Under the pieces are notes generated by a model. It ran no database searches. It was not told the DNA's origin and saw nothing but the letters and a program-made list of their open reading frames with translations. Both the position numbers and the translations under genes were made by a program. Source: a virus (Duplodnaviria; Heunggongvirae; Uroviricota; Caudoviricetes). From it: a stretch of DNA of 17,177 nucleotides. Of this stretch, positions 1 to 16,481 are shown piece after piece (the first letter of the stretch is position 1; the number at the start of each line of letters is the position of its first letter). The stretch lies in IMG/VR virus record IMGVR_UViG_2671181056_000008, positions 1 through 17,177 of that record. One strand, given 5' to 3'.

Positions 1-36
1 GCACGTCACCAGAATTTTCTTCGCGACTTGGGTCAT
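1..36 (-). CDS. metG: methionyl-tRNA synthetase, N-terminal 12 codons only (runs off window edge)
   Basis: Minus-strand ATG at 36..34 translates to MTQVAKKILVTC, the MetRS N-terminus as I recall it; divergent from apbC as in enterobacterial chromosomes. Confidence 0.75.
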   Translation of the reverse strand, partial: MTQVAKKILVTC

Positions 37-193
37 AGTAGGCATTACTTCTTTGTAGTGAAAAGGGGCTTGATAGTAACAAAATGGCCTTATGTCTGCC
101 ATGTGATAACAGCATTTCTCATAAATGATTAAATGTCGTAGCTGGAGTACACTACAAGGCGACAATTGCGCAAATTAAAATAAAGGAGACGGG
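37..193. promoter_or_regulatory. divergent metG/apbC intergenic region with apbC ribosome-binding site
   Basis: 157-bp AT-rich spacer between divergent starts; AAGGAG at 183-188, 5 nt before the apbC ATG at 194. Promoters not mapped. Confidence 0.5.
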
Positions 194-1294
194 ATGAGCG
201 AGTCCAAATCGCCGGATGCCCTGAGAGCAATGGTAGCCGGTACGCTGGCTAATTTTCAGCACCCAACCCTGAAACACAACTTGACTACGCTTAAAGCGTT
301 ACACCATGTTGCGTTGATGGATGACACACTGCATGTCGAACTAATCATGCCTTTCGTGTGGAATAAGCCTTTTGAAGACCTGAAAGAGCAATGTAGTGGT
401 GATCTGCTCCGTATCACTGGCGCAAAGGCTATTGACTGGAAGCTGTCGTACAACATTGCCACGCTTAAGCGCGTCAAAAACCAACCAGGCATTAATGGCG
501 TTAAGAACATTATCGCCGTCAGCTCAGGCAAGGGCGGCGTGGGTAAATCCTCCACAGCAGTAAACTTGGCACTGGCTTTGGCTGCTGAAGGTGCGAAAGT
601 TGGTATTTTGGATGCCGATATCTATGGTCCATCAATTCCAACCATGCTGGGCGCGGAAAACCAACGTCCAACCTCACCGGACGGTACTCACATGGCACCT
701 ATCATGTCTCATGGCCTGGCAACCAACTCTATTGGTTATCTGGTCACCGATGACAATGCAATGGTGTGGCGTGGACCGATGGCGAGCAAGGCGCTGATGC
801 AGATGTTGCAGGAAACACTGTGGCCTGATCTGGACTATCTCGTTCTCGATATGCCACCGGGCACTGGTGATATTCAATTGACGCTGGCGCAGAACATTCC
901 TGTAACTGGTGCGGTTGTGGTAACTACGCCGCAAGACATCGCGCTGATCGATGCGAAGAAAGGCATTGTGATGTTCGAAAAAGTCGAAGTGCCGGTACTG
1001 GGTATCGTTGAAAACATGAGTGTGCATATTTGCAGTAACTGCGGTCATCACGAGCCAATTTTTGGCACCGGTGGAGCACAGAAACTGGCCGAGAAATACA
1101 ACACGCAGTTGTTAGGCCAAATGCCACTTCATATCTCTCTTCGTGAAGATCTGGATAACGGAACACCAACCGTTATTAGTCGTCCAGATAGCGAATTTAC
1201 GGCTATTTATCGTGACCTCGCAGATCGCGTTGCTGCCCAAATGTATTGGCAAGGTGAAGTAATACCTGGCGAAATCGCATTCCGCGCAGTGTGA
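194..1294 (+). CDS. apbC: Fe-S cluster carrier ATPase ApbC/Mrp (ParA/MinD family)
   Basis: 366 aa; P-loop GKGGVGKS, MinD/Mrp-like core, C-terminal CSNCGH cysteine pair; strong Shine-Dalgarno; stop TGA at 1292-1294. Confidence 0.95.
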   Translation: MSESKSPDALRAMVAGTLANFQHPTLKHNLTTLKALHHVALMDDTLHVELIMPFVWNKPFEDLKEQCSGDLLRITGAKAIDWKLSYNIATLKRVKNQPGINGVKNIIAVSSGKGGVGKSSTAVNLALALAAEGAKVGILDADIYGPSIPTMLGAENQRPTSPDGTHMAPIMSHGLATNSIGYLVTDDNAMVWRGPMASKALMQMLQETLWPDLDYLVLDMPPGTGDIQLTLAQNIPVTGAVVVTTPQDIALIDAKKGIVMFEKVEVPVLGIVENMSVHICSNCGHHEPIFGTGGAQKLAEKYNTQLLGQMPLHISLREDLDNGTPTVISRPDSEFTAIYRDLADRVAAQMYWQGEVIPGEIAFRAV

Positions 1295-1295
1295 T

Positions 1296-1320
1296 AAAAA
1301 GGCGGTGCATTGCACCGCCT
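1296..1320. terminator. rho-independent terminator hairpin between apbC and the island
   Basis: A-tract 1296-1300, 8-bp GC stem ggcggtgc (1301-1308) / gcaccgcc (1312-1319), 3-nt loop. On the minus strand the stem is followed by TTTTTA, so it fits the incoming island transcript best. Confidence 0.6.
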
Positions 1321-1331
1321 AATCAGTTCTC

Positions 1332-1721
1332 CTACATCACAGGACAATCATCAAACTCGCCACTTCTTGCGTCGTTGATAATGTGAGTGATCACACCAAA
1401 CACGGCATTGCTGCCCGTGCATCCATCGTCATCCTTTGGCAATGCTTCCTTCTTACCGGTTCTTAAATCCTCCAGATGCTGACGTGGAGACTTCCGGTAT
1501 CTTTTTACGCGATATTCCCCATCCAGAGCGCATACAAGCAGAGAACCATCAACCGGGGTAAGTGAGGAATCAACCACCAGCAATGCACCCTGTAATATTC
1601 CCTCACGATGATGACTATCAGCTGCTCTCATGAAGTAGGTCGCTGAAGGATGTCTAATTATCTGCTGATCAAGAGAAATACGGCTCTCAGCATAATCCGC
1701 CGCAGGAGAAGGGAAGCCCAT
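1332..1721 (-). CDS. UmuD'-like S24 peptidase lacking the N-terminal arm (HumD-like)
   Basis: 129 aa beginning MGFPSPAADY, which matches UmuD from its Cys24/Gly25 cleavage site onward; Ser (AADS) and Lys (RVKR) dyad positions retained; in-frame TGA five codons upstream of the ATG rules out an N-terminal arm. Confidence 0.85.
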   Translation of the reverse strand: MGFPSPAADYAESRISLDQQIIRHPSATYFMRAADSHHREGILQGALLVVDSSLTPVDGSLLVCALDGEYRVKRYRKSPRQHLEDLRTGKKEALPKDDDGCTGSNAVFGVITHIINDARSGEFDDCPVM

Positions 1722-1737
1722 AGCGTTTTGCCCTCAA

Positions 1738-1757
1738 TACTGTTCATTTACACAGTA
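1738..1757. promoter_or_regulatory. LexA (SOS) box TACTGT-N8-ACAGTA
   Basis: tactgttcatttacacagta matches the CTGT-N8-ACAG consensus including flanking TA; sits 17 nt upstream of the UmuD'-like start, overlapping a TATACT -10-like hexamer. Confidence 0.7.
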
Positions 1758-1843
1758 TACATGAAAGAAGCTCACTCAGTGCAACTGATCGGTACATAGC
1801 ACCAGACAAAGGAACGTTATTTTCTCGAACAAGAAAAGGTAGA

Positions 1844-1877
1844 AAACAAATTGTTTAAGGCCACAACTAGTGGCCTT
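1844..1877. repeat. 13-bp palindrome AAACAAATTGTTT followed by GC hairpin, copy 1 of a composite element
   Basis: Perfect palindrome 1844-1856; hairpin aaggccac (1857-1864) / gtggcctt (1870-1877), 5-nt loop. Near-identical element at 6964-6997. Confidence 0.6.
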
Positions 1878-1893
1878 AATGGAGAAGGGATGC

Positions 1894-2457
1894 TTATTGG
1901 CTATGGCTAAAAATCAAATGAGACACTTCATTTGGTTGTAGCTCGTCAAGATCCGGGGCCACAAAACCTTTTCCGAAAGACTTCACAAGTGATTCACCAG
2001 CCGCATCATTGTCACCTATTACGCGAAAGTCATACGGCAGCATTGCCAGTTGACGACGTAATCCTGCTGAGAAAGTCGAACCTAACAGCGCCCACGAATT
2101 TCCGCCCGCGTTGTGCACTGCTGCACTTTTAAAAATCGACTCAGTTATCCATATCGGTCCATCTTTTAAAGGAAGATAGGTTCCCCATAGTAGCTGTCTG
2201 CCGTGCGCTCGTGTGAAATACCGGGCCATCTTCGGATTGCTATGCTGCTTAGGAGCGCCTGGTCTGTATGTCTGATACCCGGCCAACATCCCATCAAACC
2301 TGTATAGAGGGAATGTAACAACTCCTTCGCTTTCATCGATCCACTGTCTATATGGATGCACATCATAGCGGTAGTTACGAGTTAGCAAATGAGCTTCCAG
2401 CTTTCCAAATTTAGTCATAACTTCGCATCCCTCATAACACTTCCCATTTATCACCAT
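1894..2457 (-). CDS. small Toprim-domain protein (DnaG-type motifs)
   Basis: C-terminal half aligns by eye to DnaG Toprim: ITES (catalytic Glu), LGST, VIGDNDAAGE (DxD). Alternative start at 2418 (MTKFGK) avoids the 26-nt overlap with the upstream gene. Confidence 0.6.
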   Translation of the reverse strand: MVINGKCYEGCEVMTKFGKLEAHLLTRNYRYDVHPYRQWIDESEGVVTFPLYRFDGMLAGYQTYRPGAPKQHSNPKMARYFTRAHGRQLLWGTYLPLKDGPIWITESIFKSAAVHNAGGNSWALLGSTFSAGLRRQLAMLPYDFRVIGDNDAAGESLVKSFGKGFVAPDLDELQPNEVSHLIFSHSQ

Positions 2458-3286
2458 ATTTCTCCATAGCTCTTAGCCAATAAACATGGCCACTAGGCAT
2501 AGTGATGTGAGGCTCGCCAAACTCTTCTCCATGTACATCAAAGATGTCCCCAACAGAAAATTGGGGGATTTCTGTTCCGTTTTCACCTATATGTGTAATT
2601 CGTATACGTTTCGGTTGGGATTGTCCACCTTTGAGCGAGTTGTTCACTGCTCTGGCAATTTTCTCCCGCAATTGCTGCGTTCCGTGATACGTAACCGCAA
2701 TATCCCGCAACTCATTCACTAGTTCTCGAATTTGGTGATCTTTAAGCTCATTATTTGGGTGATTGGTAACAACTCTGGTTAATTCCCCATTGTCTTTTGC
2801 TCTTACGTATGCAGCTCTTGTGCATTCGCCCCATGTATTACCGCCTACATTAACTTCGTAGATTAGGCTGGACTTATCTGTCAATTCGGAACAAATACGG
2901 GCCGTGGTCTGGCAACTAGAGCATTCGCAGTTATCGCGGAAACCGTGGTCTACTGGCTTCGGTTTAACATCATCAACTTTTTCTACCCTATTGGAATTTA
3001 AATACTTCGAAGCCTTGCTATGCCAATCGCTGGTTTTAGGATCTTGTCCATCCATCAAACGCCAGGCTTCAGCTATTAACTCATAACTAGTGACTGTAGC
3101 TTCCTGCGCATCACCAATAAGTCGTGTAATCTCTCTTTCAAGCCGACCGCCTAACTCCGTTTTAGTGCAATGTTCTGACCAATCGCCAGTCTCAAGAAGC
3201 GCGAGAATGCTTAAAATATCGTCCAATAGAACGGTAGTATTATCGACTTCCTTCTGAAACTCACCGGCTACTGATTTATGCATCAT
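2432..3286 (-). CDS. hypothetical protein, 284 aa, with CxCxxC cysteine cluster
   Basis: Long ORF; start ATG overlaps the upstream stop (ATGA); no family recognised. Confidence 0.6.
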   Translation of the reverse strand: MMHKSVAGEFQKEVDNTTVLLDDILSILALLETGDWSEHCTKTELGGRLEREITRLIGDAQEATVTSYELIAEAWRLMDGQDPKTSDWHSKASKYLNSNRVEKVDDVKPKPVDHGFRDNCECSSCQTTARICSELTDKSSLIYEVNVGGNTWGECTRAAYVRAKDNGELTRVVTNHPNNELKDHQIRELVNELRDIAVTYHGTQQLREKIARAVNNSLKGGQSQPKRIRITHIGENGTEIPQFSVGDIFDVHGEEFGEPHITMPSGHVYWLRAMEKYGDKWEVL

Positions 3287-3504
3287 TCGTCATCCTCATC
3301 CGAGTCATCCTCATCACAGGATGAGAGTAGTGGGTTAGTCATTCGCCCTACTTGAGTGGCGTAGCAACGCCGACAGAGATTGCGCAGCACACTGTATATT
3401 TCGAACATCTCGGTTCGTTCATCGCCAACATCAAGCTCAGATGCTATAGCGTGGCATTCAGTCGCGAGAGCCGATATTTTCTGAAATAACTCTGCTTTAT
3501 TCAC
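3283..3504 (-). CDS. hypothetical small protein, 73 aa, acidic C-terminus (CDEDDSDEDDE)
   Basis: GTG start at 3504 preceded by AGGAG with 7-nt spacer; overlaps the DUF551-like gene stop. The 93-aa ORF in the track has no ribosome-binding site at its ATG. Confidence 0.35.
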   Translation of the reverse strand: MNKAELFQKISALATECHAIASELDVGDERTEMFEIYSVLRNLCRRCYATQVGRMTNPLLSSCDEDDSDEDDE

Positions 3505-4072
3505 TCTTCGACTCCTGCGGAGGTTCTGGTAGCGGCATCCAGTGAGTTGCTTGCTCAATACCATTACCCGGCTTAATCGTTACATCTCCGCGCCGAAAGG
3601 TGATTCCGGTATAGCGTGCGGAGCATATTAGCGGTTCAACCAGAGAGCTATCGAAATTCACCGAAATAAGCACGTTCTGGCCCTTTTCAGGCATTCGCTC
3701 ACTACAGCTTATCCAACCATCCGGAGTTACCGGATGGGGTCCAGCGAACTCGGGAATGTCAGGACCTTTTCTGATAGCTTTAGCCAGATCCAGCGGGTCA
3801 TCGTAAAGCCAGTCGCCAGTTTGTGGGTGATTTGCTTCTGCAAGCTGCGCAGCCCATTCAAGACCATCTTTTTGACCTTGGAGATAATCAAGCGGCAACT
3901 CTTCATGATTACTTGCAGGTTCTGCACTATCAGCTTCGCGCCGCTTCTGTAGCTCTGCTGCCATCGCTCTCACGACTTCAACTGGTGCCCTTGCAGCAAA
4001 CTCTATGTTGGTGATCAGCTCATTAAGATATTGCTCGCCTGGATACTGTTTCTTATCGGTTATAGTGGTCAT
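3497..4072 (-). CDS. DUF551-like phage protein
   Basis: 191 aa from ATG at 4072 (GGAGAGTGAT upstream); C-terminal segment with THWMPLPEPP resembles the DUF551 signature as recalled. Confidence 0.6.
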   Translation of the reverse strand: MTTITDKKQYPGEQYLNELITNIEFAARAPVEVVRAMAAELQKRREADSAEPASNHEELPLDYLQGQKDGLEWAAQLAEANHPQTGDWLYDDPLDLAKAIRKGPDIPEFAGPHPVTPDGWISCSERMPEKGQNVLISVNFDSSLVEPLICSARYTGITFRRGDVTIKPGNGIEQATHWMPLPEPPQESKSE

Positions 4073-4073
4073 A

Positions 4074-4460
4074 TCACTCTCCTTTTCCCTGAAGCATAGC
4101 AGCGCGGCAGGCATTCCAGCCTCTCACCTCTGCAATAGCGGCAACAGCATCAACCGCGTACATGCTAAGAGGATTAGGCATTGGTTTTTCTTCCGGTACT
4201 ACTGGAACGGGTGGAGCGGCGTAGACCTCAATAATTCCATTATCAATAGGCCATTCTCCATCCTTGAGGTAGTCACTTGTGCCGTCAACTTGCTGTTCTG
4301 CAATGTGGAATGCACCTATTGGTTTTGCTTCCAGCGATGCCAGAGCAATTCGTGCCAGTTCTTCCGCTTCTTCTGCTGGCAGTACAACGTTGCTACCAGG
4401 TCCGTATGTTTCGCGCCACTGTTTGATTGTCAGTAGTCGCTCTTTGGTAATAGTGGTCAT
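4074..4460 (-). CDS. hypothetical protein, 128 aa
   Basis: ATG at 4460 preceded by AAGGAG; C-terminus ends KGE immediately before the next gene's start. Confidence 0.6.
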   Translation of the reverse strand: MTTITKERLLTIKQWRETYGPGSNVVLPAEEAEELARIALASLEAKPIGAFHIAEQQVDGTSDYLKDGEWPIDNGIIEVYAAPPVPVVPEEKPMPNPLSMYAVDAVAAIAEVRGWNACRAAMLQGKGE

Positions 4461-4470
4461 GTGTTACTCC

Positions 4471-4734
4471 TTAACCCGCAGTGCTTTCAACTGATGAGGG
4501 GAACAAAATCCTTTCATCAAATCCGGCATTCATATCATGGACAGCAACACACCAATCCATCGACGAACGATTATCAAGAGCCTCCATGATTTCATCCATG
4601 CGGCGCAGGTCATACAGGTAAATGCTTTTATCGCCAATGGTGTAAAAACCAATTTTTTTCGGTGATGGGCAGCGATCAAGAACGTCCTGTAATTCGTTCA
4701 ACCATGCCCGTTCTTTTTTTGTTAAAGTTGCCAT
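4471..4734 (-). CDS. hypothetical protein, 87 aa
   Basis: ATG at 4734 (MATLTKKERAW) one nt after the upstream stop, preceded by GGAGAGTGAT. Confidence 0.55.
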   Translation of the reverse strand: MATLTKKERAWLNELQDVLDRCPSPKKIGFYTIGDKSIYLYDLRRMDEIMEALDNRSSMDWCVAVHDMNAGFDERILFPSSVESTAG

Positions 4735-4735
4735 A

Positions 4736-5257
4736 TCACTCTCCTTTGATGCGAATGCCTGCTGCAATGCTGTTTATGATGCTGTCAGTGCATGGAGTAG
4801 AAAGCTGGGCATCTCCAGCAATTTTCATGACCTCAACATCCGCATATCGAATACCGAGGTGTATCAGACCGGCTATACCTGACTTAAGTCGAACATTTTC
4901 CATAAACAGATCTTTTTCCCGCTGTTTAGCGGCTTCCAACTCCATCGACAATTTTTCCAACTGCTCTTTATGCTTCTTGTATTCCTGATACGCGTGCCAA
5001 GACTGACCTTTGCGCACACTATCAGTGATATCAGCAACCTGCTCCGGTGTTAGCGTGGTCAGTGGCTGTGCTGGAAAAATCATCACTTTCCCGGCATCCC
5101 AATCAAAACCCGCCTGAATTGACTGAACCTCAACTGATGGTGTTGAACCGATGCGACCAGGCGAATGAACAACGATCGTTACATCCATATCGCGACGATG
5201 GCTGTGGTTGTTGGACAAAATACGATTCACCAACTCAGAAAATTTGGAAAATTTCAT
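4736..5257 (-). CDS. hypothetical protein with Ea22-like C-terminus (AAGIRIKGE)
   Basis: 173 aa from ATG at 5257 (AAGAGGGA upstream, ATGA overlap with the upstream stop); last 9 residues identical to those of the 5579..6109 product. Confidence 0.6.
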
Positions 5258-5577
5258 GCTGATCCCTCTTTCTCTCCCCGGATAATTCTGTTGCACACAT
5301 CCACACACTCGTCGCAGATGAAAACGGCGTCCCCAGCAATTAACTTTTTGACGGCGTACTGGGATTTGTTGCAGAAGCTGCAACAAAGTGTTCGCCTGAC
5401 TGATAAGGATGGAGCGCCAGATGTCAGCCGCTCCATATCGTTCTTGCGACGCAATATCACACGGCTGAACTCAACCAGTTTCTCCGGGGATATCTCCTCC
5501 TCCGTAGCAAGCGCCTCTAATCGTTCGAGTATGTGGAAGGCTTTTTTCTGGGTAATTGCAGAATGCGATGTGGTCAT
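5254..5577 (-). CDS. small protein with C-terminal ClpX-type C4 zinc-binding domain
   Basis: 107 aa; [38 protein letters not shown] closely matches the ClpX N-terminal zinc-binding domain (CSFCGKSQ...RKLIAG...YICDECVDLCNDIIREE) with all four Cys; ATG at 5577 behind GGAGAGTGAG. Confidence 0.75.
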
Positions 5578-5578
5578 C

Positions 5579-6109
5579 TCACTCTCCTTTGATGCGAATG
5601 CCAGCGGCGCGGGAATCATTCCATCGCTTTACTTCTTCACGAATTACGTCAATGCATTCTTTCGAATCCATTAGGTAATCTTCATCAAAAAGACGTTCCT
5701 GTTCGTTTTCTATCGCAACAATGATTGCTTCAACTAACTTTTGTGCCTGAGAATCACTTTCTAACTCTGCTATGCGCTTACTTCCATCCGAGATAACGCC
5801 CTCGTAATACTCACGCTGCTCGTTGAGTTTTGATTTTGCCAACTCCAGTTGTTTTGTTAGTTCCGCAATACGGCAAACATCGTTGATACGCGTTTCCTCT
5901 AATGCGTTGATCTCATCCAGTAGTGCCAGCACGGTTTCTGGTCCGGCCAGAAATTTGAAGGCGTTGAGGGCATCAATATCAACACCGCTATCTTTAAGTT
6001 CCTGTTCACTTAACAAGTCATCATCAGCTGGCAACATTAACAGGCGTTCCATTGCTGGAATTGCACGTTCCGCCACCTCACGCAGTGCCTGGTAATTAAT
6101 TTCGCTCAC
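5579..6109 (-). CDS. Ead/Ea22-like family protein
   Basis: 176 aa; GTG start at 6109 behind GGAGG; MSEIN N-terminus, [27 protein letters not shown] block and AGIRIKGE C-terminus match lambda Ea22-like proteins as recalled (unverified). Confidence 0.65.
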
Positions 6110-6350
6110 TGGCTGCCTCCTGCTTTTCTGCCTTCAACACCATGCGAGAACCATCATCCAGCTCCCACACTATCTCACCACCTTCAGCCATGACCAGTTG
6201 CCACACCAATTGAGCAGCCTCATTGGTAACATCACGACCTGGATCATTGCCAACGCGCATACGTCCACCTTCAACATCGCGCATTTTTGCCAGCATGATA
6301 GTTTTTGATAGCGGTGAAAAACCAAGCTGTAGTCGTGCTGAATTACTCAC
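6096..6350 (-). CDS. hypothetical protein, 84 aa
   Basis: GTG start overlapping the upstream TGA (GTGA), preceded by GGAGG at 6-nt spacing. Confidence 0.5.
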   Translation of the reverse strand: MSNSARLQLGFSPLSKTIMLAKMRDVEGGRMRVGNDPGRDVTNEAAQLVWQLVMAEGGEIVWELDDGSRMVLKAEKQEAASERN

Positions 6351-6889
6351 TGGTTGCCTCCTTTGCGAAGCTGGGCAGCAAAGTCAACTAACCACTCAGT
6401 CATTTCAACCTTCCCTACCAGGTCTGAACCAGGGTGCATACAGCAATCACTCTGCGCCGCTTTGAAATCCTTATACTCATATTCTTGGGCCACCAGATTT
6501 TTTGCAGCTTCTATAGCAGCATCCACCCCCTGCGCACGTACTTCAGCCAGAAAAGCATCGGTGGCTGGAGTCTCCGTTAATTCGCTAACCCAATTATCTC
6601 CGTGTTCCTCGGCACACATCGCATCGAATGCTCGCTCAGATTCTTTCAGGGCTGCATTCTCCGCCGCTAATGCGTCTCTCTGCGCCCGCAACTTCTCAAT
6701 TTCGGCAGCCATGTAGTAACCAACCATAGCGAAGACGGCAAAAGAGTTGTCTGCCTCATCAGGCGACACTGAGGCCATTAGCAGACCATCGTAATAATCG
6801 TGACTCCCATTGGTGATCGCCACCTCATAGGAGTCGTGGTTCTCACGCTTGTGAATGAGAACTACGGGGTTTTCGATTTTGTTACTCAT
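6347..6889 (-). CDS. hypothetical protein, 180 aa
   Basis: ATG at 6889 preceded by AAGAGAAAAACAC, a leader shared with three other genes; first gene after the 6964-6997 element. Confidence 0.6.
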   Translation of the reverse strand: MSNKIENPVVLIHKRENHDSYEVAITNGSHDYYDGLLMASVSPDEADNSFAVFAMVGYYMAAEIEKLRAQRDALAAENAALKESERAFDAMCAEEHGDNWVSELTETPATDAFLAEVRAQGVDAAIEAAKNLVAQEYEYKDFKAAQSDCCMHPGSDLVGKVEMTEWLVDFAAQLRKGGNQ

Positions 6890-6963
6890 GTGTTTTTCTC
6901 TTCTTTGCTGTTACATAAGCACTACCAAGTGCTGGTTTATTTTCACAAATAAGAAAATGTAGA

Positions 6964-6997
6964 AAACAATTTATTTAAGGCCACAACTTATGGCCTT
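6964..6997. repeat. composite element copy 2: degenerate palindrome AAACAATTTATTT plus GC hairpin
   Basis: Hairpin aaggcca (6977-6983) / tggcctt (6991-6997), 7-nt loop; about 85 percent identical to 1841-1880 over roughly 45 bp. Confidence 0.6.
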
Positions 6998-7027
6998 TAT
7001 TTATTCATGCCGAAGGATTTGTAGCGT

Positions 7028-7408
7028 CTAATTGCCGTATAAAATGGGGTGAGGTGCTTGCCAGTAGGCTCCACCGGTCCATGTGAACCCCATGCGAATA
7101 AGAGTGTTTATTGCGGCTTTGGTAGACTCCGATTCGACACTGGCTTTACGAAACTCTTGAACCTCTTTCGCCAACCTGTATGTAATTGTGCAGGGGACGA
7201 TTGCAGCCCAGCCTTTCTCATGACTGTTAATGACCATCTGGATGTGACCATCCAGAATAGGTTGATTAGACATGTTATTGAAAATGTCTGCCTGTTTTTG
7301 AATGTGAAGAAAAAGCCTTGCCAGCTCCATTTGCTCACTACGAGACAAGGGATTATCAAGAGGGCTTTTTGCAAAAGCGGCTATACGCTGTGCGTCAATG
7401 CCAAACAT
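7028..7408 (-). CDS. hypothetical protein, 126 aa
   Basis: ATG overlaps the upstream stop by one nt (TGATG); no family recognised. Confidence 0.55.
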   Translation of the reverse strand: MFGIDAQRIAAFAKSPLDNPLSRSEQMELARLFLHIQKQADIFNNMSNQPILDGHIQMVINSHEKGWAAIVPCTITYRLAKEVQEFRKASVESESTKAAINTLIRMGFTWTGGAYWQAPHPILYGN

Positions 7409-8112
7409 CAGCGCACCTCACCATCTTTATGGCTGGAGTTAACTTCCGCCATTAAATGTCTGACGTAATCGACAAGAGAGCCACCTGGTGGAATCTGGCA
7501 TTCCTCAACTAACTGGAAGTAGATATCCGCAGCATTACGTGTATTGCTACCCGCGCATATTCTTTCTTCCCGAAGTGCATGAAGCTCGTTGATCAAACGG
7601 TCACACTCTCCGTTACGCTGATCCACAACAGCCTCAAGTTCTGCGACGCGTTCACCTGGCGTCTTACCTTCTTCGCGTTGGATGGTAACGACGAAATCGC
7701 CAATTGCAGGGACGTTGTAATCCAGCTCAAGGTAGTTTTTGGCACCGCTGCGGACGAACTCACCCGCGAACATGGTGGCGAACATCTCAGAGGCCATTGT
7801 GCTGTTGAAAAGTGACTCCAGATCTAACGGAGTCCCGGCAGCCAGAGCCTCTTTTGCTGTATCCATTGTATCCATGAACCGATCAAACTCATTAGCGCGC
7901 TTTTCCAGGTCTTTCCATTGCTCGCTCCAACGTTTGGCAATGAAGTCTATGAATGTTTTCGCGGATTCATCAAAATCCCCCTCAAACTTAACGATGCCTT
8001 TATCAATAATGATCTGGCCTACCGCATCCTCTGCATAACCTTTCAATGTAAACTTGAAAGGAAAATCAGAATGGCCTGTGACGTTAAAATGCTCTAACTG
8101 GAGGTTGTTCAT
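7408..8112 (-). CDS. hypothetical protein, 234 aa
   Basis: ATG at 8112 preceded by AAGAGAAAAACAT; no family recognised. Confidence 0.6.
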   Translation of the reverse strand: MNNLQLEHFNVTGHSDFPFKFTLKGYAEDAVGQIIIDKGIVKFEGDFDESAKTFIDFIAKRWSEQWKDLEKRANEFDRFMDTMDTAKEALAAGTPLDLESLFNSTMASEMFATMFAGEFVRSGAKNYLELDYNVPAIGDFVVTIQREEGKTPGERVAELEAVVDQRNGECDRLINELHALREERICAGSNTRNAADIYFQLVEECQIPPGGSLVDYVRHLMAEVNSSHKDGEVR

Positions 8113-8173
8113 ATGTTTTTCTCTTATCGTTTAGTTATTACATTCTTACACAAATTAAGTAAGTATTTACCTA

Positions 8174-9859
8174 TCATTTAACGCGTTTGAAAACGTATAC
8201 GCTGACTGTGATCCCTGTGTCTTCAAACTCGTTGGTAAACGACTTCCCTCTGGCATAAACGTAATTATCCATCGTCATCCAGTCCAGTATTGGCGCAGTG
8301 CCCGGCAATACTGCTACAAGACGCCCGCCGACTTTCAGATGCCCCAGCGCAGCCAGCGTGTGCTCTCTATGACGACCAAGCGAGTACGGCGGGTTCATAA
8401 CGATTTTGTCGAACTGATAACCTGCGTTGTCCTCAGACCACTTTATGAAGTCGCAGCAAATCGTGTTCGTATACCCTTTTCCACGCAGGATATCAGCGAA
8501 GAGAGGTGCGATTTCTATGCAGGTAACATCTTCCAGATCGGCGTTAATATAGGCCAGAAGATCCCCACGTCCGGCTTGAGGCTCCAACAGCTTCTCACCA
8601 GGCTTCAATTCAGTGGCTCTGGCAACGTACTCAGCAATCAAGCGTGGGGTAGGGTAGAACTGGTGTGATTTTGTATCCGGTATTAAACCGGTAGCCACAA
8701 TCGTATTTAGCGTATGGCCGATCTCATACGGGAACTGCCAGTGCTTTTTCTCCTGCACGCCGCCAATGAAGCTCAGTGTGCGCTCAAGCTCTTCCACCTG
8801 CGACTTCTGGAGAGCTGAATCAGAGAAGTACCATACGCCTTTGTCTTTGCTCAATCGCCCGTCACGAAGCGCAGTGCGAACCGGCACGGAGATCGTCTTC
8901 TGGATTAACCCGAACTGCTTTGGTGCCCGTGTTTTTGGCGCAGTTCGGCATGGCGCGGGGATTGCAGCAGGCATACTGTAAGCCAGCACCTCATTCAACT
9001 TCCAGGCCACGTCAGGATGTATTTCAAAGTGAACGTTGCCGTTCTTGAACATCTTCACGCGCATCAGATTTCCATCGACGTTCATCCAGTCACCGGTCTG
9101 GCAGTCGTTTGCCCGATACGCAGCTGATAGCACCTCAGCAGTGCGGTTGATGGTAATAAATTCTTTGTGCGCGAAGAAATGAAGCAAGACACGCAGATCG
9201 TCGATGTAGTCCTCTTTGCGATAGTTCACGCTAACGCTGTCACGCCAGAAATCAGAAATGCAGTCAGCGATTATCAGACGCTCGCTGAAACCGTTTGTCT
9301 TATTTGTCTTGTGCGCAGGACTCAGCGCCTTAAACAAGCCATACACGCGCTCAGAGAGATATTTGTGCCTGTCATTCAGCAAATTAAGCATCGTTGGTAT
9401 GACCGTTTCTGCTTTGAACTCCGGTACACCAACGAACTCTTTAACCTTCATCTGATAGCCGGTTCTGTCAGTTTTGATGACTTCCTGCTTGCCCTCGATA
9501 AATAGCTCACGCCACTCGTCGCGACGGGAAGCTGGCATGATCAGCAGAACGTTAGTCATATCCGTAACCTTCCTCCAGTACTCGGCCCAAATATTCTGTT
9601 TCACCCATTCCAGATCGACGTTATCCAGCCAGACTCGATTCAAACGTGAGCGATCTTCATCTGGTCGGTGGTTTAGTCGAAGCAGGCGATTAATCATGTT
9701 GTGGCGTTCATCGCCATAAACGAAGTCGTGTACCTGATACATGAAGGAGATCTCTTTCTCGCACTCGGCCACAATTTCGTGGATGACGTTCATTTCCTGT
9801 CGATAGTCGATAGCAGTGTTTGAGCTGGCATCGCCCATGATGGAAAGGGCTGTATTCAT
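8174..9859 (-). CDS. two-domain protein with C-terminal N6-adenine DNA methyltransferase domain
   Basis: 561 aa; FYPTP, then SAM-binding EPQAGRGDLL, then NPPY about 70 residues later (gamma-like motif order), only about 55 residues after NPPY; N-terminal 400 aa unassigned. Confidence 0.85.
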   Translation of the reverse strand: MNTALSIMGDASSNTAIDYRQEMNVIHEIVAECEKEISFMYQVHDFVYGDERHNMINRLLRLNHRPDEDRSRLNRVWLDNVDLEWVKQNIWAEYWRKVTDMTNVLLIMPASRRDEWRELFIEGKQEVIKTDRTGYQMKVKEFVGVPEFKAETVIPTMLNLLNDRHKYLSERVYGLFKALSPAHKTNKTNGFSERLIIADCISDFWRDSVSVNYRKEDYIDDLRVLLHFFAHKEFITINRTAEVLSAAYRANDCQTGDWMNVDGNLMRVKMFKNGNVHFEIHPDVAWKLNEVLAYSMPAAIPAPCRTAPKTRAPKQFGLIQKTISVPVRTALRDGRLSKDKGVWYFSDSALQKSQVEELERTLSFIGGVQEKKHWQFPYEIGHTLNTIVATGLIPDTKSHQFYPTPRLIAEYVARATELKPGEKLLEPQAGRGDLLAYINADLEDVTCIEIAPLFADILRGKGYTNTICCDFIKWSEDNAGYQFDKIVMNPPYSLGRHREHTLAALGHLKVGGRLVAVLPGTAPILDWMTMDNYVYARGKSFTNEFEDTGITVSVYVFKRVK

Positions 9860-9962
9860 AATTGCACCATTAAGAAATGATTTGTTTAATGATGCAATTA
9901 TTTCAAAAATAAAAAGGTGCTAAATAGAAATTAACAGGCAATACTTAAAATAAAGGCATTGA

Positions 9963-10864
9963 CTAATCATACTTGGATGTATTTATAACCAGGACTTTAT
10001 TTGTATATAGTTTTTTTACATTCCATGTAACATTACTTGAATACCATTCACCATTATATATTTGGTTTCCCGTTGCGCCTGTCATTGTTACGTATACAGG
10101 TCTGTCGTAAGGTGTTCGTCTATAGTTATATACTCCAACCATTGCAGGCATTATCGCACACGGGTATCCCATATTTATGGTAAATTGAGGATTTGTAATA
10201 GTGATAATCTCTGCATCAAGGGGCATCATCTCACCGTGATATACCATTTTACCTGCGCTATTATACATGGCAATACCATATCCTGAATGTGGTAACACCA
10301 TATCAGAAAAAGCATAAACTGTTATCGTTCCGGGGTTTCCTCCAACCTGATTCAGTCTGAGAACATTATACCCATCTCTAAATTCATGAACGAACATCAT
10401 ATTCGCCTTATTACTGCTTTTTATAAAGAAAAAACATGATTTGTTCGACGGTATTGAAGTCTTAAAAACAGAACCTTTAGACGTGGACATTGTCCCCCTA
10501 TTAATCAAATTTTGCGGTGTAAATTCTGGACTCATCCACACATTACCATTTGACTGAGTAATTGACATCCCGAACATTATTGTTATCCCCAATATGTATA
10601 TATATAAGATCCAAGTCCCTTGTATAAATTTGACCAACTTACTGTATTGCCGTTAATAGTGATAGTTGGTGTAGGTATATTTACATGGTTATCGTTATTT
10701 AAAGGCATCAATGAGCACACAGCATGTAATGATTTGCCAGGTGGTGGATTTGGGTAAGTCTTAGAGCCTGACGTGGTTGTAAATCGATCAAGAAAAAAAA
10801 TAGGAGTAAGGAAGCCGGTAACGTTAACTCCCTTATTATTGTAGATCCCTGTACCGTATGCCAT
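9963..10864 (-). pseudogene. AT-rich gene split into two frames at a (TA)5 tract
   Basis: Frame A (10583..10864, 93 aa) has a good ribosome-binding site; frame B (9963..10637) continues 200+ aa from a TTG. Frames differ by one nt and the (TA)5 tract at 10597-10606 lies in the overlap; removing one TA fuses them. Confidence 0.4.
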
Positions 10865-10890
10865 TTTTCATCCTTGTTTTTATCAACATA

Positions 10891-10914
10891 ATATGGCCGA
10901 TCATGCGGCCATAT
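10891..10914. terminator. inverted repeat ATATGGCCG-N6-CGGCCATAT, candidate terminator
   Basis: 9-bp perfect stem with 6-nt loop, 4 nt after the 10919 stop; followed on the minus strand by a T-rich stretch. Confidence 0.45.
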
Positions 10915-10918
10915 CAGA

Positions 10919-11488
10919 TCAATTAGAGCTTTGAAAGGCTTTGTGTGGCTGTGTTGCGAGGTTATGTCGATGGCTTAACTCACGCATCATGTCTTCAAGG
11001 CGACTCTTTGTGTCGTCGAGTTGGTCAGCCATTGCTCCTAAAAGCTGACGAACTACCATCGGATCGTCGCTGTTTAGTGATGGCATTTTATAACCCGCCT
11101 GAGAAGACATCAGATTGAATGCTGACATCAACATCGTTAGAGAGGATTTAAGCCCGGCAATTTCACGATCTTTGCTGGCAATAATCGTCTCACTTTTGTT
11201 ACTGTCATGAGTTCCTTGAGTCTCGATCACCATATCCAAAGTCTCTTGCAACTTATCAGCTCTCTGTTTTTCAGCAAGATAATGAACACCGAAATGATGT
11301 GCTAAAGCTACAACCTGAGTTGGCTCTTCAAAGGTGGACTCAAAATTAAGTGCTGTAACCACTCTCTCAAAAATGGAAACGTCTTCTATTCCTCGAAGAA
11401 TGGCTAACATTTTGACAAGTTCATTAGCATCCATTTCTTCGAATAGGGCGTTTTGTTCATCAGCTATTGCTTTGCATTTCTCGCACAT
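10919..11488 (-). CDS. hypothetical protein, 189 aa
   Basis: ATG at 11488 preceded by AAGGAAAACAT; leader carries the palindrome at 11507-11519. Confidence 0.6.
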   Translation of the reverse strand: MCEKCKAIADEQNALFEEMDANELVKMLAILRGIEDVSIFERVVTALNFESTFEEPTQVVALAHHFGVHYLAEKQRADKLQETLDMVIETQGTHDSNKSETIIASKDREIAGLKSSLTMLMSAFNLMSSQAGYKMPSLNSDDPMVVRQLLGAMADQLDDTKSRLEDMMRELSHRHNLATQPHKAFQSSN

Positions 11489-11506
11489 ATGTTTTCCTTA
11501 ATGCTT

Positions 11507-11522
11507 AAACAAGTTGTTTTCT
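11507..11522. promoter_or_regulatory. palindrome AAACAAGTTGTTT (operator-like), copy 3
   Basis: Perfect 13-bp palindrome 19 nt upstream of the 11488 start; the 16-mer aaacaagttgttttct is identical to 12236-12251. Confidence 0.5.
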
Positions 11523-11627
11523 TATTGGCTTTATTGTGATGTGGCATAAAAGGGGAGCAAGCTAAACGTAAAGGTGCAAACTCTCTATTTCGGTCAACGA
11601 AACACAATGGCCATTTGACCCTTGTCA

Positions 11628-11786
11628 TTAACACGTTGCTTTACGGACTAGCGGATAAGCGAAGTAGATCGCCAGACCAATGAGGACGCCATCAGAAATG
11701 ACAGACATCATCTTTCCCGTAAAATCCACCAACACCGCCATCACCAGAAGAGCAATGACGGTCACAAGCCGGAATCTCTCAAGCAT
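11628..11786 (-). CDS. small hydrophobic peptide, 52 aa, two predicted TM helices (not in ORF track)
   Basis: ATG at 11786 overlaps the TerB-like stop (TAATG); hand translation gives MLERFRLVTVIALLVMAVLVDFTGKMMSVISDGVLIGLAIYFAYPLVRKATC, stop at 11628-11630. Confidence 0.4.
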   Translation of the reverse strand: MLERFRLVTVIALLVMAVLVDFTGKMMSVISDGVLIGLAIYFAYPLVRKATC

Positions 11787-12211
11787 TAGAGATAAGCATC
11801 CAGTGACAACTGAAGCGCCTGGGCGATCTTTTTCAGCGCCTGCTCTTCTGGTTCATCAATGCCGTCTTGGTCGGCAATATCAAGGCACAGACAAAGTACA
11901 TCTACTGCATCATCAGTCCCGGCCACATCCGCCAGCTCACGTAAAGCCTGGGCATTAGCACGGCGCGGTGAGGCTTCGTATTGAGCGCGGATATTGGCGC
12001 TCATCTGGGCTATCTCACCAGCAAAAGGAGAAAATGCAGGCAGAGCTGCAATTGTTTTCTCAAGAATGGAAATTTCTTTTGCATCGCATGTACCGTTGGC
12101 ATAGGAGATCATGTACCCACCCCACACGGTGGCTTCAACCGCATCACGGTTCTCCATTTTTTTGACTTCGATAACTGCTTTACGAGTTTTCTTTTTGAAG
12201 AAACCTAACAT
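11786..12211 (-). CDS. TerB-like domain protein
   Basis: 141 aa; MLGFFKKK N-terminus and C-terminal DIADQDGIDEPEEQALKKIAQALQL resemble tellurite-resistance TerB as recalled; ATG behind AAGGAAAACAC. Confidence 0.6.
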   Translation of the reverse strand: MLGFFKKKTRKAVIEVKKMENRDAVEATVWGGYMISYANGTCDAKEISILEKTIAALPAFSPFAGEIAQMSANIRAQYEASPRRANAQALRELADVAGTDDAVDVLCLCLDIADQDGIDEPEEQALKKIAQALQLSLDAYL

Positions 12212-12235
12212 GTGTTTTCCTTTTGTTATTGGTCA

Positions 12236-12251
12236 AAACAAGTTGTTTTCT
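12236..12251. promoter_or_regulatory. palindrome AAACAAGTTGTTT (operator-like), copy 4
   Basis: Perfect 13-bp palindrome 25 nt upstream of the TerB-like start; same 16-mer as copy 3. Confidence 0.5.
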
Positions 12252-12304
12252 AGTTAAATAAATTGCTTACGCAAAGACGGTCAATGCATATGCACTAACA
12301 ACCG

Positions 12305-12493
12305 TCAGAAATAACCAAGTACCGAACCGACTGGAAAAATAAAAATCCCAACTACACGAGCCAAGGTCATGCCAGCCTGAAACTGGAGATCGCCAGAGCA
12401 AACAAGTTTTATAATGTTCGATACCCAACCGGCGGCCATGAGGGCAAGAATTGCCAGCCAAATTTTTCCAAAGTGATTTGAAAACCAGTTCAT
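12305..12493 (-). CDS. small membrane protein, 62 aa, two predicted TM helices
   Basis: Two hydrophobic segments (IWLAILALMAAGWV, VVGIFIFPVGSVLGYF); ATG overlaps the stop of the 12490..12741 frame (ATGA) and lies 9 nt after the 12503 stop. Confidence 0.5.
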   Translation of the reverse strand: MNWFSNHFGKIWLAILALMAAGWVSNIIKLVCSGDLQFQAGMTLARVVGIFIFPVGSVLGYF

Positions 12494-12502
12494 ACAACCG
12501 CC

Positions 12503-12997
12503 TTAGTCACAGCATGATCCTGAGTAACTGGATGAACTTGAGGTATCGCATCCACCGTCATCCCATCCAGAGTGACAGGTCGCTCTACTGGAGTGGTGGT
12601 AATTGTCGTCGACGGAGGTGTGGTGATGGATGAATCCGGCATCAAAAGGCTCTGACCGGCTGGAACGGCTACCGTCGCCAGTGAAACTATAATGAGAACG
12701 TAGGCCATTGGTTTCAGCCTCTTTCTTTGAAAATTTTCCATTCGAACTGTCCTTGTTGTTTTTCTCCTTCACTAAAGGCCGTGCATTTTTCGCTTCGCGT
12801 GAAGAACCAGAGGCAACAATCGCCCACACGTTCGCAACAACTGACGCTTGATTATCTAAACGTTCATTCAGCAACCGAACGGTAGTCTCTAGTTCATCAA
12901 GGCGTGACATAACACGACCGCTAAATAATTCGGCCAAAATTTGACGTAAAGAACGAGGACGTTTAGTTACAGAAGTGAAATAGGTTTGACGTGCCAT
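12503..12997 (-). CDS. hypothetical protein, 165 aa, with a second signal-peptide ORF nested out of frame
   Basis: ATG at 12997 behind GGAG; N-terminal 60 aa protein-like, C-terminal half Ser-rich low complexity and overlapped by 12490..12741 (signal-peptide-like MAYVLIIVSLATVAVPAGQSLL). Which frame is expressed is unresolved. Confidence 0.45.
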   Translation of the reverse strand: MARQTYFTSVTKRPRSLRQILAELFSGRVMSRLDELETTVRLLNERLDNQASVVANVWAIVASGSSREAKNARPLVKEKNNKDSSNGKFSKKEAETNGLRSHYSFTGDGSRSSRSEPFDAGFIHHHTSVDDNYHHSSRATCHSGWDDGGCDTSSSSSYSGSCCD

Positions 12998-13026
12998 GTG
13001 GACTCCATCCAGTGTCATAAAGAGTT

Positions 13027-13048
13027 GCGGCTGGCAATCGCCAGCCGC
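13027..13048. terminator. GC-rich hairpin, candidate terminator or attenuator
   Basis: 9-bp stem gcggctggc / gccagccgc with 4-nt loop, immediately upstream of the 12503..12997 gene; U-tract weak on the minus strand, better (CTTTCTCGTT) on the plus strand. Confidence 0.4.
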
Positions 13049-13142
13049 CTTTCTCGTTCCATCCTGGAACTGTGTCTTACCGACACATTGTCATCCTGAC
13101 GCCGATAAGATACATGATTTATAATGATAGGTAAACACTTAC

Positions 13143-13736
13143 TTACTGTTTGTTATAAACAAAACCAATATCTTTCTTGTGAGGCATATCTGCTGCTGAA
13201 AAAGCTGCGATCTTCGCGAGTCGATCACATATTTCATTTTCACGATGCCCGGCGTGACCTTTAACCCACTTCCAGCGAACATTATGTCGACTTGCGGCCT
13301 CATCCAGACGCTTCCACAGATCAACATTCTTTACCGGTTTTTTGTCAGAAGTCATCCATCCATTGCGTTTCCACCATTTCATCCACTGTGTCATGCCGTT
13401 TTTCAGATACTGGCTATCAGAGTGCAAAATAACGTTGCATGGATATTTCAAACGCTCCAGCCCGATAAGTGCCCCCATCATCTCCATGCGGTTATTGGTG
13501 GTGCTATGAAAACCATCTGAGAACTCGCGTTCCTCGCCACGATACTGGAGAACGATACCGTAACCGCCCGGGCCACCCGGATTTTTAAGGCAAGAGCCAT
13601 CACTAAAGATTTTCACGGTTTTAAGCTGGGGATTGAACTCTACGACAGGCGTTGTGGGATTGGTGCGGGGAGAATTTTTGTTTTTGTCTTTTTTGCGAGT
13701 TTTTGCTTGCGGTCGGGCTGGTGTCTTCGTTGTCAT
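13143..13736 (-). CDS. rnhA: ribonuclease HI homologue with basic N-terminal extension
   Basis: 197 aa from ATG at 13736 (AGGAG upstream); core [17 protein letters not shown]...TNNRMEMMG...HSDSQY...[11 protein letters not shown] aligns closely to E. coli RnhA; about 40-residue Lys/Arg/Pro-rich N-terminal extension. Confidence 0.9.
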
Positions 13737-14317
13737 ATAAACTCCTGAATCAAGCGCCGCGCCGATTTTTCCTCGCGCGTGCGCACACGCGTGCGTGTTA
13801 ATAATTATTAAAATAAACAAATTACTTCCCAGAACAGGTTTTTATAAACCTGAACTGAACGAACGAAGTGAGTGAAGTTCACCTCGAACGAAGTGAGAGG
13901 TTGTCTTTTCAGGTAATACTCTCCCAGGGAGGTGAGTATAAAATTCCTCACCAACCTGGTCGTTTCATAACCTGAAAAGCTATGGTCTAAGTCTACTGCC
14001 AGCTTAGACTTGGGAAGTTATGGATGACAGCACCCCAGAACCGAGATCTTCCCACACTTTATGAAGGGGAGTACTGGATTCAACCTCTCGAAACACCCCA
14101 GACTCGACAATCATAAAGTGACCCTTGTCTCCGCTCACTTTGGTTCCCCCTTCCCCGACACCTAAACGGCACCGGTTCTACGCTGGTAGTGAGCTTTTTT
14201 AAACCTGACGCCAGTGACGCTTACCCCCACCCATCAGGTCGAGTCTCCAGTCTACGACTGGAAACTATCAGATCTTAGCACTTACAATTCATCTTATGAA
14301 TAGTTTGTACTTATCTA
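13737..14317. other. 580-bp ORF-free structured region (candidate ncRNA, origin or regulatory hub)
   Basis: No ORF of 60 aa or more; 25-nt alternating purine-pyrimidine tract (13774-13798), 14-bp AT palindrome (13798-13811), 13-bp direct repeat (13860-13872, 13885-13897), several hairpins, repeated CACCCCAGA, two AGATCT sites. Confidence 0.4.
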
Positions 14318-14548
14318 TCATTTCGATTGATTATTTTCTCGACCATGTAGTTGAACATTCAAGGCAAACACCTCGTTGATCAACTCACCTAAAAGCTGTT
14401 CAACAAGTTCGCGATGCTCCCCAAGATGCAAGCACTTAATTGCCCACTCGTACAAGTTGAAAGCCTGCTCACGATCTTTCATCATTTCACGAGCCTGGGC
14501 CAGAAAATCGCTGTCTACGAGCGCAACGACATTAGTCGGGTATGACAT
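14318..14548 (-). CDS. hypothetical protein, 76 aa
   Basis: ATG at 14548 (MSYPTN) preceded by AAGGAA; the upstream ATG at 14572 has no ribosome-binding site. Confidence 0.5.
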   Translation of the reverse strand: MSYPTNVVALVDSDFLAQAREMMKDREQAFNLYEWAIKCLHLGEHRELVEQLLGELINEVFALNVQLHGRENNQSK

Positions 14549-14652
14549 GTTGGTTTCCTTAAAGTGGTTCATAAAATCGATTTTAAAGCGTCTGGGAAGG
14601 GGGTCTAGTGGATTCTGTAGTGATGTTCAGGTCTGGAGTCTCTGATACAAAA

Positions 14653-14714
14653 CAGCCTGCTTCCGTATATTAATAATTAATATGTAGTTATTTATATATA
14701 TACAGAAGCAGGCT
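14653..14714. terminator. long inverted repeat with AT-rich palindromic loop, candidate terminator plus promoter
   Basis: 10-bp stem agcctgcttc (14653-14662) / gaagcaggct (14705-14714); loop holds a 17-bp palindrome ATATTAAT-A-ATTAATAT and a (TA)5 tract; followed on the minus strand by GTTTTGTATC. Confidence 0.45.
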
Positions 14715-14735
14715 AATTACAGACGCCAGAACAAA

Positions 14736-15329
14736 CTAAGCAGCCTTCTTTGATGGTCTTTTTTTCCTGATCACATTCGCAGGATCATACCCTCCCAGAC
14801 TTTTCATGACGTCCAAAGGGATCTTGCTTATAGAGTGCCCAGCGTCCTGACAGAATCCTCGAAAAACAACGAGCATACTGCCACCGGGGTTGATGTTTAC
14901 TTCTACCTGACCCAAATTGACGTCAGGCTCGACAAACGCTACGCGGCCACCAGACAGAATAATCGTCTCATTCGCATACTCTGTTGCACGCTCATACCAC
15001 TTTGTATCGAGGGATTGAGGAATTAGCATCACTGTAGTAACTCCGCGAGCCTGCTCACGTATAGCAGCATCAATCCAGGGGGAGATTTTGGAGTAGGGTG
15101 GATTGAGGAAGGCAATTGTACCTGGCTGTCCCCATTCAGATTTCAAAGCATCACGCTCAATGCCTATGAAATTAGGCAGCTTTGCGTTGTCCTTGTTGCA
15201 GGCAACGTCAACATCAAATGTCACTCCAAGATAACGTTGAATGGCAGAAAACAGCCAATCAGGTGTTCTCCAGAGGTCACGAAGAGAGTTGTCGCGCTTT
15301 CGCTGTTTGATTTTTTCGGCTGCAATCAT
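14736..15329 (-). CDS. phage-type DNA N6-adenine methyltransferase (Dam family)
   Basis: 197 aa; WRTPDWLF near the N-terminus and NPPYS catalytic motif, typical of the small phage Dam family. Confidence 0.85.
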   Translation of the reverse strand: MIAAEKIKQRKRDNSLRDLWRTPDWLFSAIQRYLGVTFDVDVACNKDNAKLPNFIGIERDALKSEWGQPGTIAFLNPPYSKISPWIDAAIREQARGVTTVMLIPQSLDTKWYERATEYANETIILSGGRVAFVEPDVNLGQVEVNINPGGSMLVVFRGFCQDAGHSISKIPLDVMKSLGGYDPANVIRKKRPSKKAA

Positions 15330-15396
15330 CTTCTTTCTCGATAGGTAAGTAAATACCTATTTTTGCATTTGATTTTATGTATGGCAATCAAATAAA

Positions 15397-15471
15397 ACGC
15401 GCCAGAAATGCGAACAAGAAGCTCTCTGGCGCGTTTTTTTGGTGCTGGGTATGGGTTATCTTACCCAGCAC
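15397..15471. terminator. tandem hairpins: bidirectional terminator candidate plus a second GC hairpin
   Basis: Stem acgcgccag (15397-15405) / ctggcgcgt (15426-15434) followed by T7 on the plus strand and by TTTTATTTGATT on the minus strand; second hairpin gtgctgggta (15442-15451) / tacccagcac (15462-15471). Confidence 0.5.
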
Positions 15472-15511
15472 TATAAAGCTCTCTATGGGCTTTATTTTCA
15501 GTAGGGGAACG

Positions 15512-16321: not shown

Positions 16322-16442
16322 GTAAGTCTCCTTCTGTTTAGTTGCATTTGCGTTTCGATGGCTACATTTTGACTAAACCTATCAGGCGGAAAAGTATTAA
16401 ATACAGGCAGGAAATGATTGAAAGGCGACTGTTCTTTAAAAG

Positions 16443-16480
16443 AAAGCCTGCTTCAAACTCTCTTTAAAGCAGGCTTTTGT
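16443..16480. terminator. rho-independent terminator after the exonuclease gene
   Basis: About 13-bp stem (agcctgcttcaaa / tttaaagcaggct, one mismatch) with 5-nt loop, T-rich on both sides; begins 2 nt after the 16482 stop. Confidence 0.6.
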
Positions 16481-16481
16481 T

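Follow-up and report, generated by a model that had tools for sequence, protein, structure and literature searches.

A motorless ClpX-type zinc-binding domain encoded on an enterobacterial phage-plasmid: a candidate decoy for adaptor-dependent ClpXP proteolysis

What might a temperate phage do with a copy of the substrate-docking domain of a host protease when the motor of that protease is missing from the copy? The question is raised by a small gene in the DNA analyzed here, a stretch of 17,177 nucleotides (nt) of a Caudoviricetes record (IMG/VR record IMGVR_UViG_2671181056_000008, positions 1 to 17,177) that we refer to as the window. [quoted passage not shown] The gene, its parts and its surroundings are as follows:

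5254-5577, minus strand: gene of the 107-aa ZBD protein, consisting of an N-terminal helical hairpin, a linker and a C-terminal ClpX-type ZBD
5422-5550, minus strand: N-terminal family-specific domain (N-domain), residues 10-52, with predicted helices at 10-26 and 31-52
5395-5421, minus strand: linker, residues 53-61, the least conserved stretch, with disorder predicted over residues 53-62
5272-5394, minus strand: ZBD, residues 62-102, a C4 treble-clef zinc finger with Cys 66, 69, 88 and 91
5584-5588, minus strand: Shine-Dalgarno-like AGGAG as read from the sequence, 6 nt 5' of the ZBD gene ATG and within the end of the upstream gene
5579-6109, minus strand: upstream Ead/Ea22-like gene (Pfam PF13935, E=7.6e-24, 85.3 bits against a cut-off of 27)
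4736-5257, minus strand: downstream gene of 173 aa and unknown function, overlapping by ATGA (PHROG 6026 and 368)
5570-5608, 4727-4765 and 4065-4103, minus strand: three copies of a 39-nt gene-junction repeat (repeat family D1, 67-100% identity)

The gene runs from an ATG at 5577-5575 to a TGA at 5256-5254, and its product is identical to WP_000213528.1, which RefSeq names 'ClpX C4-type zinc finger protein'. With the domain thus annotated in public records, there is nothing new in observing it. The protein also matches PHROG 6797, a family listed as function unknown, with residues 1-106 on profile positions 1-106 of 107 (E=2.9e-58). Its start is backed by homologues that begin MTTSH; for the same reason we rejected a longer frame of 121 aa from the ATG at 5619, which lies inside the Ea22 gene and whose extra residues are the junction repeat read in another frame. 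The stop codon of the upstream Ea22-like gene (5581-5579) ends one base ahead of the ATG, and at the other end the TGA shares an ATGA (5257-5254) with the ATG of the downstream gene.

The initial annotation had assigned a ClpX-type C4 ZBD to the C-terminal part of the protein and had named the zf-C4_ClpX profile as the means of checking it. In that search, now run, Pfam zf-C4_ClpX (PF06689) matched residues 65-100 (profile positions 2-38 of 39) with E=1.3e-15, scoring 57.4 bits where the gathering cut-off is 27, and the assignment stands: the KLIAG and ICDECVD blocks are both present, and C66, C69, C88 and C91 align gaplessly to ClpX C14, C17, C36 and C39 and do not vary among the 25 family members. 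By sequence, the closest solved structures are those of the E. coli ClpX ZBD, 2ds5 and 1ovx (E=1e-14, gapless alignment), and 28 of 39 positions (72%) are identical between the window ZBD and E. coli ClpX. AlphaFold2, run on an alignment of 25 sequences (mean pLDDT 73.8), predicted a ZBD that superposes on PDB 2ds6_A with an rmsd of 0.5 Å over 38 columns (71% identity; TM 0.87, target-normalized), and the PDB comparison of the predicted 107-aa model returned no match beyond the ZBD. 

The same initial annotation had stated that no AAA+ module is present within the 107 aa, and this was borne out. When the motor was sought with the NCBIfam ClpX equivalogs NF003745 and TIGR00382, scores were 41.9 and 39.7 bits, far under the respective cut-offs of 359 and 370.75, and only model positions 4-48 were covered. 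Since the protein stops 5 residues past the ZBD, it has no AAA+ motor and is not a ClpX.

The N-terminal hairpin, which the initial annotation did not discuss, turned out to be the better-conserved half of the protein. Mean pairwise identity is 81% in the N-domain and 72% in the ZBD, with the linker (residues 54-63) at 58% and its pLDDT below 50 at residues 56-60. Against window-type relatives, dN/dS is 0.16-0.49 for the N-domain and 0.6-1.8 for the ZBD, and for the ZBD between the two subfamilies described below it is about 0.2, all of these being noisy, rough values from 37-47 codons only. Within the ZBD, the equivalents of ClpX F16, G30, I35, V40 and C43 are as invariant as the four cysteines, those of L12, I28, V33 and I47 are nearly so, and that of I46 is V or I in 22 of 25 members. 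Surface positions 18, 22, 23, 26, 29, 32, 34, 41, 42 and 45 are variable, and the equivalents of Y34 and A29 have become C and T, respectively, in some window-type members. As judged from the alignment, then, the ZBD retains its scaffold and the named pocket residues, its rim has drifted, and the tightest constraint falls on the N-domain.

The two halves also travel together. A phmmer search with residues 1-60 against 1.84 billion representatives returned relatives of the same architecture or their fragments, with identity down to about 40%, and among these matches no N-domain occurred without a ZBD; a single repetitive, eukaryote-like match of 650 aa was taken as a coiled-coil artefact. Together with the presence of a ZBD after the N-domain open reading frame in 78 of 78 loci, this result indicates that N-domain and ZBD form one fixed unit. 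A scan of GTDB genome contigs with the N-domain alignment gave 256 pattern matches, of which none was confirmed, and was uninformative. We also discarded an LRRK in the N-domain as an XB-like ZBD-binding motif, the published motif (LKxh or LRVV) being too degenerate to be meaningful.

Full-length relatives (64-100% identity) come only from Escherichia and Salmonella, and the family is limited to temperate enterobacterial elements, namely, SSU5-sized and P1-like phage-plasmids, prophages and P2-like phages. Sensitive blastn located the gene in 220 of 5,426 complete E. coli genomes, at 233 places (106 on plasmids and 127 on chromosomes). As matches were obtained in 220 genomes rather than in all 5,426, chromosomal clpX was not picked up, and recent capture of the domain from E. 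coli clpX therefore has no DNA-level support; the window ZBD is no closer to E. coli ClpX, with its 28 shared positions, than to generic ClpX ZBDs from metagenomes, with which the window ZBD shares up to 30 of 39. Older records name relatives 'carboxylate--amine ligase', evidently a misnomer. In two loci (L015, 6001-6849, and L030, 5965-6822), a frameshift after ...FICDEC joins the ZBD gene to the downstream 173-aa gene, with loss of the ZBD helix; these fusions are likely pseudogenes or assembly errors.

Two subfamilies can be told apart. In the window type, AG-D/E replaces the near-universal AGP of ClpX, such that D, E or Q stands at the Pro31 position in all 25 members, compared with P in 86 of 88 other ZBDs. 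Genes of this type lie in Ea22-type cassettes of 106-110-kb phage-plasmids, the P1-like phage-plasmid D6 and chromosomal prophages, with a few copies in P2-like phages. The P88 type has a more host-like ZBD that reads AGPSVYIC and is identical to E. coli ClpX at 31 of 39 positions. In P2-like phages the ZBD gene is found in a region of variable cargo, flanked by the replication/partition genes and the portal gene, and in those sampled the P88-type gene is nearly always directly 3' of stbA(parM)-stbB (Pfam E=1.8e-82 and 1.6e-24). This R1-type partition module lies between the replication gene and the ZBD gene (at 3665-4940 in locus L002, and in about 40 IMG/VR loci, L040-L079), which suggests that P88-type 'integrative' P2-like phages may also persist as plasmids.

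Small stand-alone ZBD proteins are also encoded by unrelated phages, as in Pseudomonas phage PP9W2 (65 aa), Caulobacter phage Cr30 and phrog_12435. In metagenomes, a family separate from that of the window (P0034, P0036, P0039, P0076, P0109 and P0120) has an N-terminal ClpX-type ZBD followed by a second C4 zinc ribbon, again lacking an AAA+ module. Judged by this small-protein family, free ZBD proteins exist outside enterobacterial phages too.

The initial annotation had placed the gene on an island, a claim that we could not uphold. All 17 kb of the window, apbC included, share 99.8% identity with p09EL50, a 109,274-bp plasmid of E. coli O104:H4, which rules out a chromosomal island; several plasmids of 106-110 kb are 96% identical to the window, and Escherichia phage PhiR41_1 and CMS-2020a, phage records of similar length, encode the ZBD protein at 96-100% identity. 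By these matches the window is part of a phage-plasmid. The p09EL50 replicon carries metG, thyA, a dfrA gene, rnhA, methyltransferases and exonucleases. A full-length apbC is found at 194-1294, and the metG of the phage-plasmid is just upstream of the window (1003-3036 in locus L001); because these two housekeeping genes normally stand together on the chromosome, this is probably why the locus had been taken for a chromosomal island.

Within the window, the ZBD gene is one of a series of closely spaced genes on the minus strand. No promoter-like site was found on that strand from about 9906 to a strong terminator-like hairpin at 1879-1855, and the gene likely forms part of a polycistronic early/accessory array. 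It had been described as lying between two Ea22-like genes, a description that holds in full on the upstream side and loosely on the downstream one. The upstream gene, for which RefSeq gives a start at window position 6052, has the PF13935 match listed above; the downstream 173-aa protein had no match in a Pfam scan and shares with Ea22-like proteins only the coiled-coil tail (PHROG 368) and the C-terminal GIRIKGE. Neighbors, this 173-aa gene included, vary by element type, and no constant partner gene was found. The 39-nt repeat covers the end of one cassette (...GIRIKGE stop), the Shine-Dalgarno sequence and the ATG of the next gene, and it looks like a recombination boundary that would let cassettes shuffle among phage types. 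The GIRIKGE tail also ends an unrelated Mom-like protein that adjoins the ZBD gene in P2-like phages (locus L043).

Two further genes of the window deserve mention. At 1332-1721 on the minus strand is encoded a 129-aa S24 peptidase that has only the UmuD/LexA-type catalytic domain and lacks a DNA-binding domain. E. coli UmuD is a ZBD-docking adaptor for the degradation of UmuD' by ClpXP, and this peptidase might conceivably be linked to the ZBD protein. The leftward array is headed by the gene (8174-9859, minus strand) of a 561-aa protein that RefSeq describes as 'DUF4942 domain-containing'; the C-terminal part of this protein matches PADLOC mad2 (E=1.1e-15) and type II methyltransferase models, and the protein may be a methylase with which the phage counters restriction or protects itself.

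The analysis thus shows which domain the ZBD protein contains, how it is predicted to fold, how its parts are ordered and conserved, and where its gene lies; for the function proposed below there is a published in vitro precedent. In ClpX, the ZBD is the docking platform for SspB, RssB, trigger factor and substrates such as lambda-O; these ligands use a hydrophobic pocket with F16 and I46 in its lining, and deletion of the ZBD abolishes lambda-O degradation (PMC7804408). [quoted passage not shown] Because a free ClpX ZBD can in this way block adaptor-dependent degradation, we tentatively favor, at somewhat less than an even chance, the reading that the ZBD protein mimics, as a separate protein, the docking domain of ClpX and acts as a decoy for adaptors and ZBD-dependent clients, with the N-domain adding oligomerization or target specificity. 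The C-terminal ZBD would fold like that of ClpX and probably dimerize likewise, offering the same hydrophobic pocket to adaptors such as SspB and RssB and to substrates that, like lambda-O or MuA, depend on the ZBD. Adaptors and substrates docked on it would be withdrawn from ClpXP, so that a subset of clients would be stabilized and the motor left untouched; the N-terminal hairpin would most likely oligomerize the protein, thereby raising avidity, or hold one particular partner. Zinc binding, dimerization, the binding of ClpX ligands and any effect on proteolysis are inferred steps of this reading.

Several of the results favor this decoy reading: the ZBD is real and close to that of the host, with the buried hydrophobic residues shared with ClpX and the F16/I46 pocket equivalents kept; the ZBD of the P88-type sister subfamily resembles that of the host even more; unrelated phages have small stand-alone ZBD proteins of their own; and the gene sits in tightly packed early/accessory arrays of temperate elements. 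Phages are, moreover, known to block host proteases, with T4 PinA and T7 gp4.5 acting on Lon and lambda RexB on Clp (PMC10286901). Three points count against it. The strongest is that a plain decoy would have no need of the N-domain, yet this is the more constrained part of the protein. In addition, with Pro31 replaced and the equivalents of Y34 and A29 varying in the window type, ligand specificity may have left that of ClpX. Finally, competition by free ZBD in vitro took a large molar excess (PMC7226468).

The drift of the ZBD surface beside a fixed N-domain would also fit a protein that has nothing to do with ClpXP, the ZBD serving as a generic zinc-stabilized module for dimerization or protein binding and the N-domain carrying the real activity, for instance in maintenance or partition of a plasmid-prophage or in the choice between lysis and lysogeny, in which the exo-xis/ea22 region of lambdoid phages has been reported to act. 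This reading is also favored by the near-constant position of the gene next to stbA-stbB in the sampled P2-like phages and by its frequency on phage-plasmids, to which the plasmid share of the E. coli places attests; most other elements, however, have the gene away from partition genes. Although zf-C4_ClpX is known as an accessory to unrelated proteins, for example cyanobacterial sigma factors (PMC11119718), a mere dimerization scaffold would not need the 72-79% identity to the host ClpX ZBD, ligand pocket included, that is retained here. We regard a role unrelated to ClpXP as rather unlikely, but as the most serious of the alternatives.

A constrained N-domain that is always flexibly linked to the ZBD also resembles an adaptor-like binding module on a tether, and the hydrophobic core positions of the ZBD are shared with ClpX. 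Both features would suit a protein that engages ClpX itself: the phage ZBD would pair with the ClpX ZBD, or dock on the ClpX ring, and so tether the hairpin to the unfoldase, which would either be poisoned by a subunit that keeps adaptors from docking or be handed a chosen target by an adaptor of phage origin. Heterodimerization with ClpX is suggested by the conserved core residues, but the ClpX ZBD is described, in the part of PMC7226468 that cites Wojtyra 2003, as a constitutive, stable dimer, so that exchange into assembled hexamers is doubtful; nor was a conserved cargo candidate found beside the ZBD gene. We therefore consider capture of ClpX in this manner unlikely, and we hold its more specific form, in which the ZBD plugs into the N-domain layer of ClpX and the hairpin recruits a protein of the host or of a rival element for destruction by ClpXP, to be improbable.

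It is similarly improbable, in our estimate, that the same biochemistry as in the decoy works for the opposite beneficiary, with ZBD-dependent action of ClpX being blocked by a protein that the prophage expresses for exclusion or against addiction. Such a block would stop superinfecting elements that need ClpX or spare antitoxins such as Phd, thus blunting toxin-antitoxin killing. Remodeling of Mu-type transpososomes requires ClpX. In P88-type loci, variable cargo follows the ZBD gene, and in four of them (L041, L055, L056 and L058; at about 6494-7257 in L041) this is a Doc/Phd pair, the Doc matching Fic/DOC with E=3.5e-11 and the Phd-like protein matching Phd_YefM with E=7.8e-07 and 29.2 bits, just under the cut-off of 29.8. 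As P1 Phd is among the substrates of ClpXP, and RexB prevents the Clp-dependent loss of antitoxin (PMC10286901), the immediate proximity of the pair to the ZBD gene could be significant, or a cargo hotspot may have brought the genes together by chance; the four loci are set against a total of about 40 of the P88 type, and the PADLOC-DB v2 defense models matched neither the ZBD protein nor its immediate neighbors.

Our search of the literature on stand-alone phage ZBD proteins found no study of them, and a natural free copy of a protease docking domain on phage-plasmids appears, as a functional idea, to be undescribed. If the decoy reading is true, this is a natural case of a mobile element that diverts proteolysis with a copy of the domain on which substrates dock in a host AAA+ protease, and the product would be a selective inhibitor of the adaptor-dependent branch of ClpXP that does not kill the motor. 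That branch handles sigma-S, replication initiators, SOS proteins and possibly antitoxins. Control of ClpXP would thereby be tied to phage-plasmid biology, phage-plasmids being common among pathogenic E. coli, and a ready-made tool for dissecting ZBD-dependent degradation would be at hand. Were the protein instead a phage-supplied adaptor, it would be a bacterial counterpart of the viral hijacking of degradation machinery, achieved by mimicry of the protease's own domain.

Set beside known systems, the ZBD protein is closest to the E. coli ClpX ZBD, with which it shares the C4 treble-clef fold (predicted here), the four cysteines, the hydrophobic core and the F16/I46 pocket. Whereas the ZBD of ClpX is N-terminal on an AAA+ motor, that of the phage protein is C-terminal, motorless and placed behind a family-specific hairpin, and the Pro31 of ClpX is replaced by D, E or Q throughout the window-type subfamily. 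The isolated recombinant ClpX ZBD used in trans likewise lacks the motor, and the competitive inhibition of adaptor-dependent ClpXP degradation by this free ZBD dimer is the very activity that we propose for the phage protein; the domain used in trans is, however, a laboratory fragment without an extra domain, and a large molar excess of it was required (PMC7226468). The P88-type homologues of P2-like phages, such as P88 gp19 (YP_009113062.1, another bearer of the ligase misnomer), have the same two-domain architecture, with an N-domain about 42% and a ZBD about 69% identical to those of the window protein; they differ in their more ClpX-like ZBD and in their near-constant place after stbA-stbB rather than in Ea22 cassettes. 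PinA, gp4.5 and RexB are, as is proposed for the phage ZBD, small phage proteins that damp host proteolysis, with the protection of labile antitoxins as one of the effects (PMC10286901), but they have no sequence relation to the ZBD protein, in which a Pfam scan finds zf-C4_ClpX only, and they are not copies of a domain of their target. If the decoy reading is true, the outcome for sigma-S would be that brought about by IraD, IraM and IraP, with RssB kept from ClpX; IraD and the ZBD have in fact been proposed to bind overlapping sites on RssB (PMC7226468). The Ira proteins have unrelated folds and act on RssB only, whereas a copy of the ZBD could bind every ZBD ligand.
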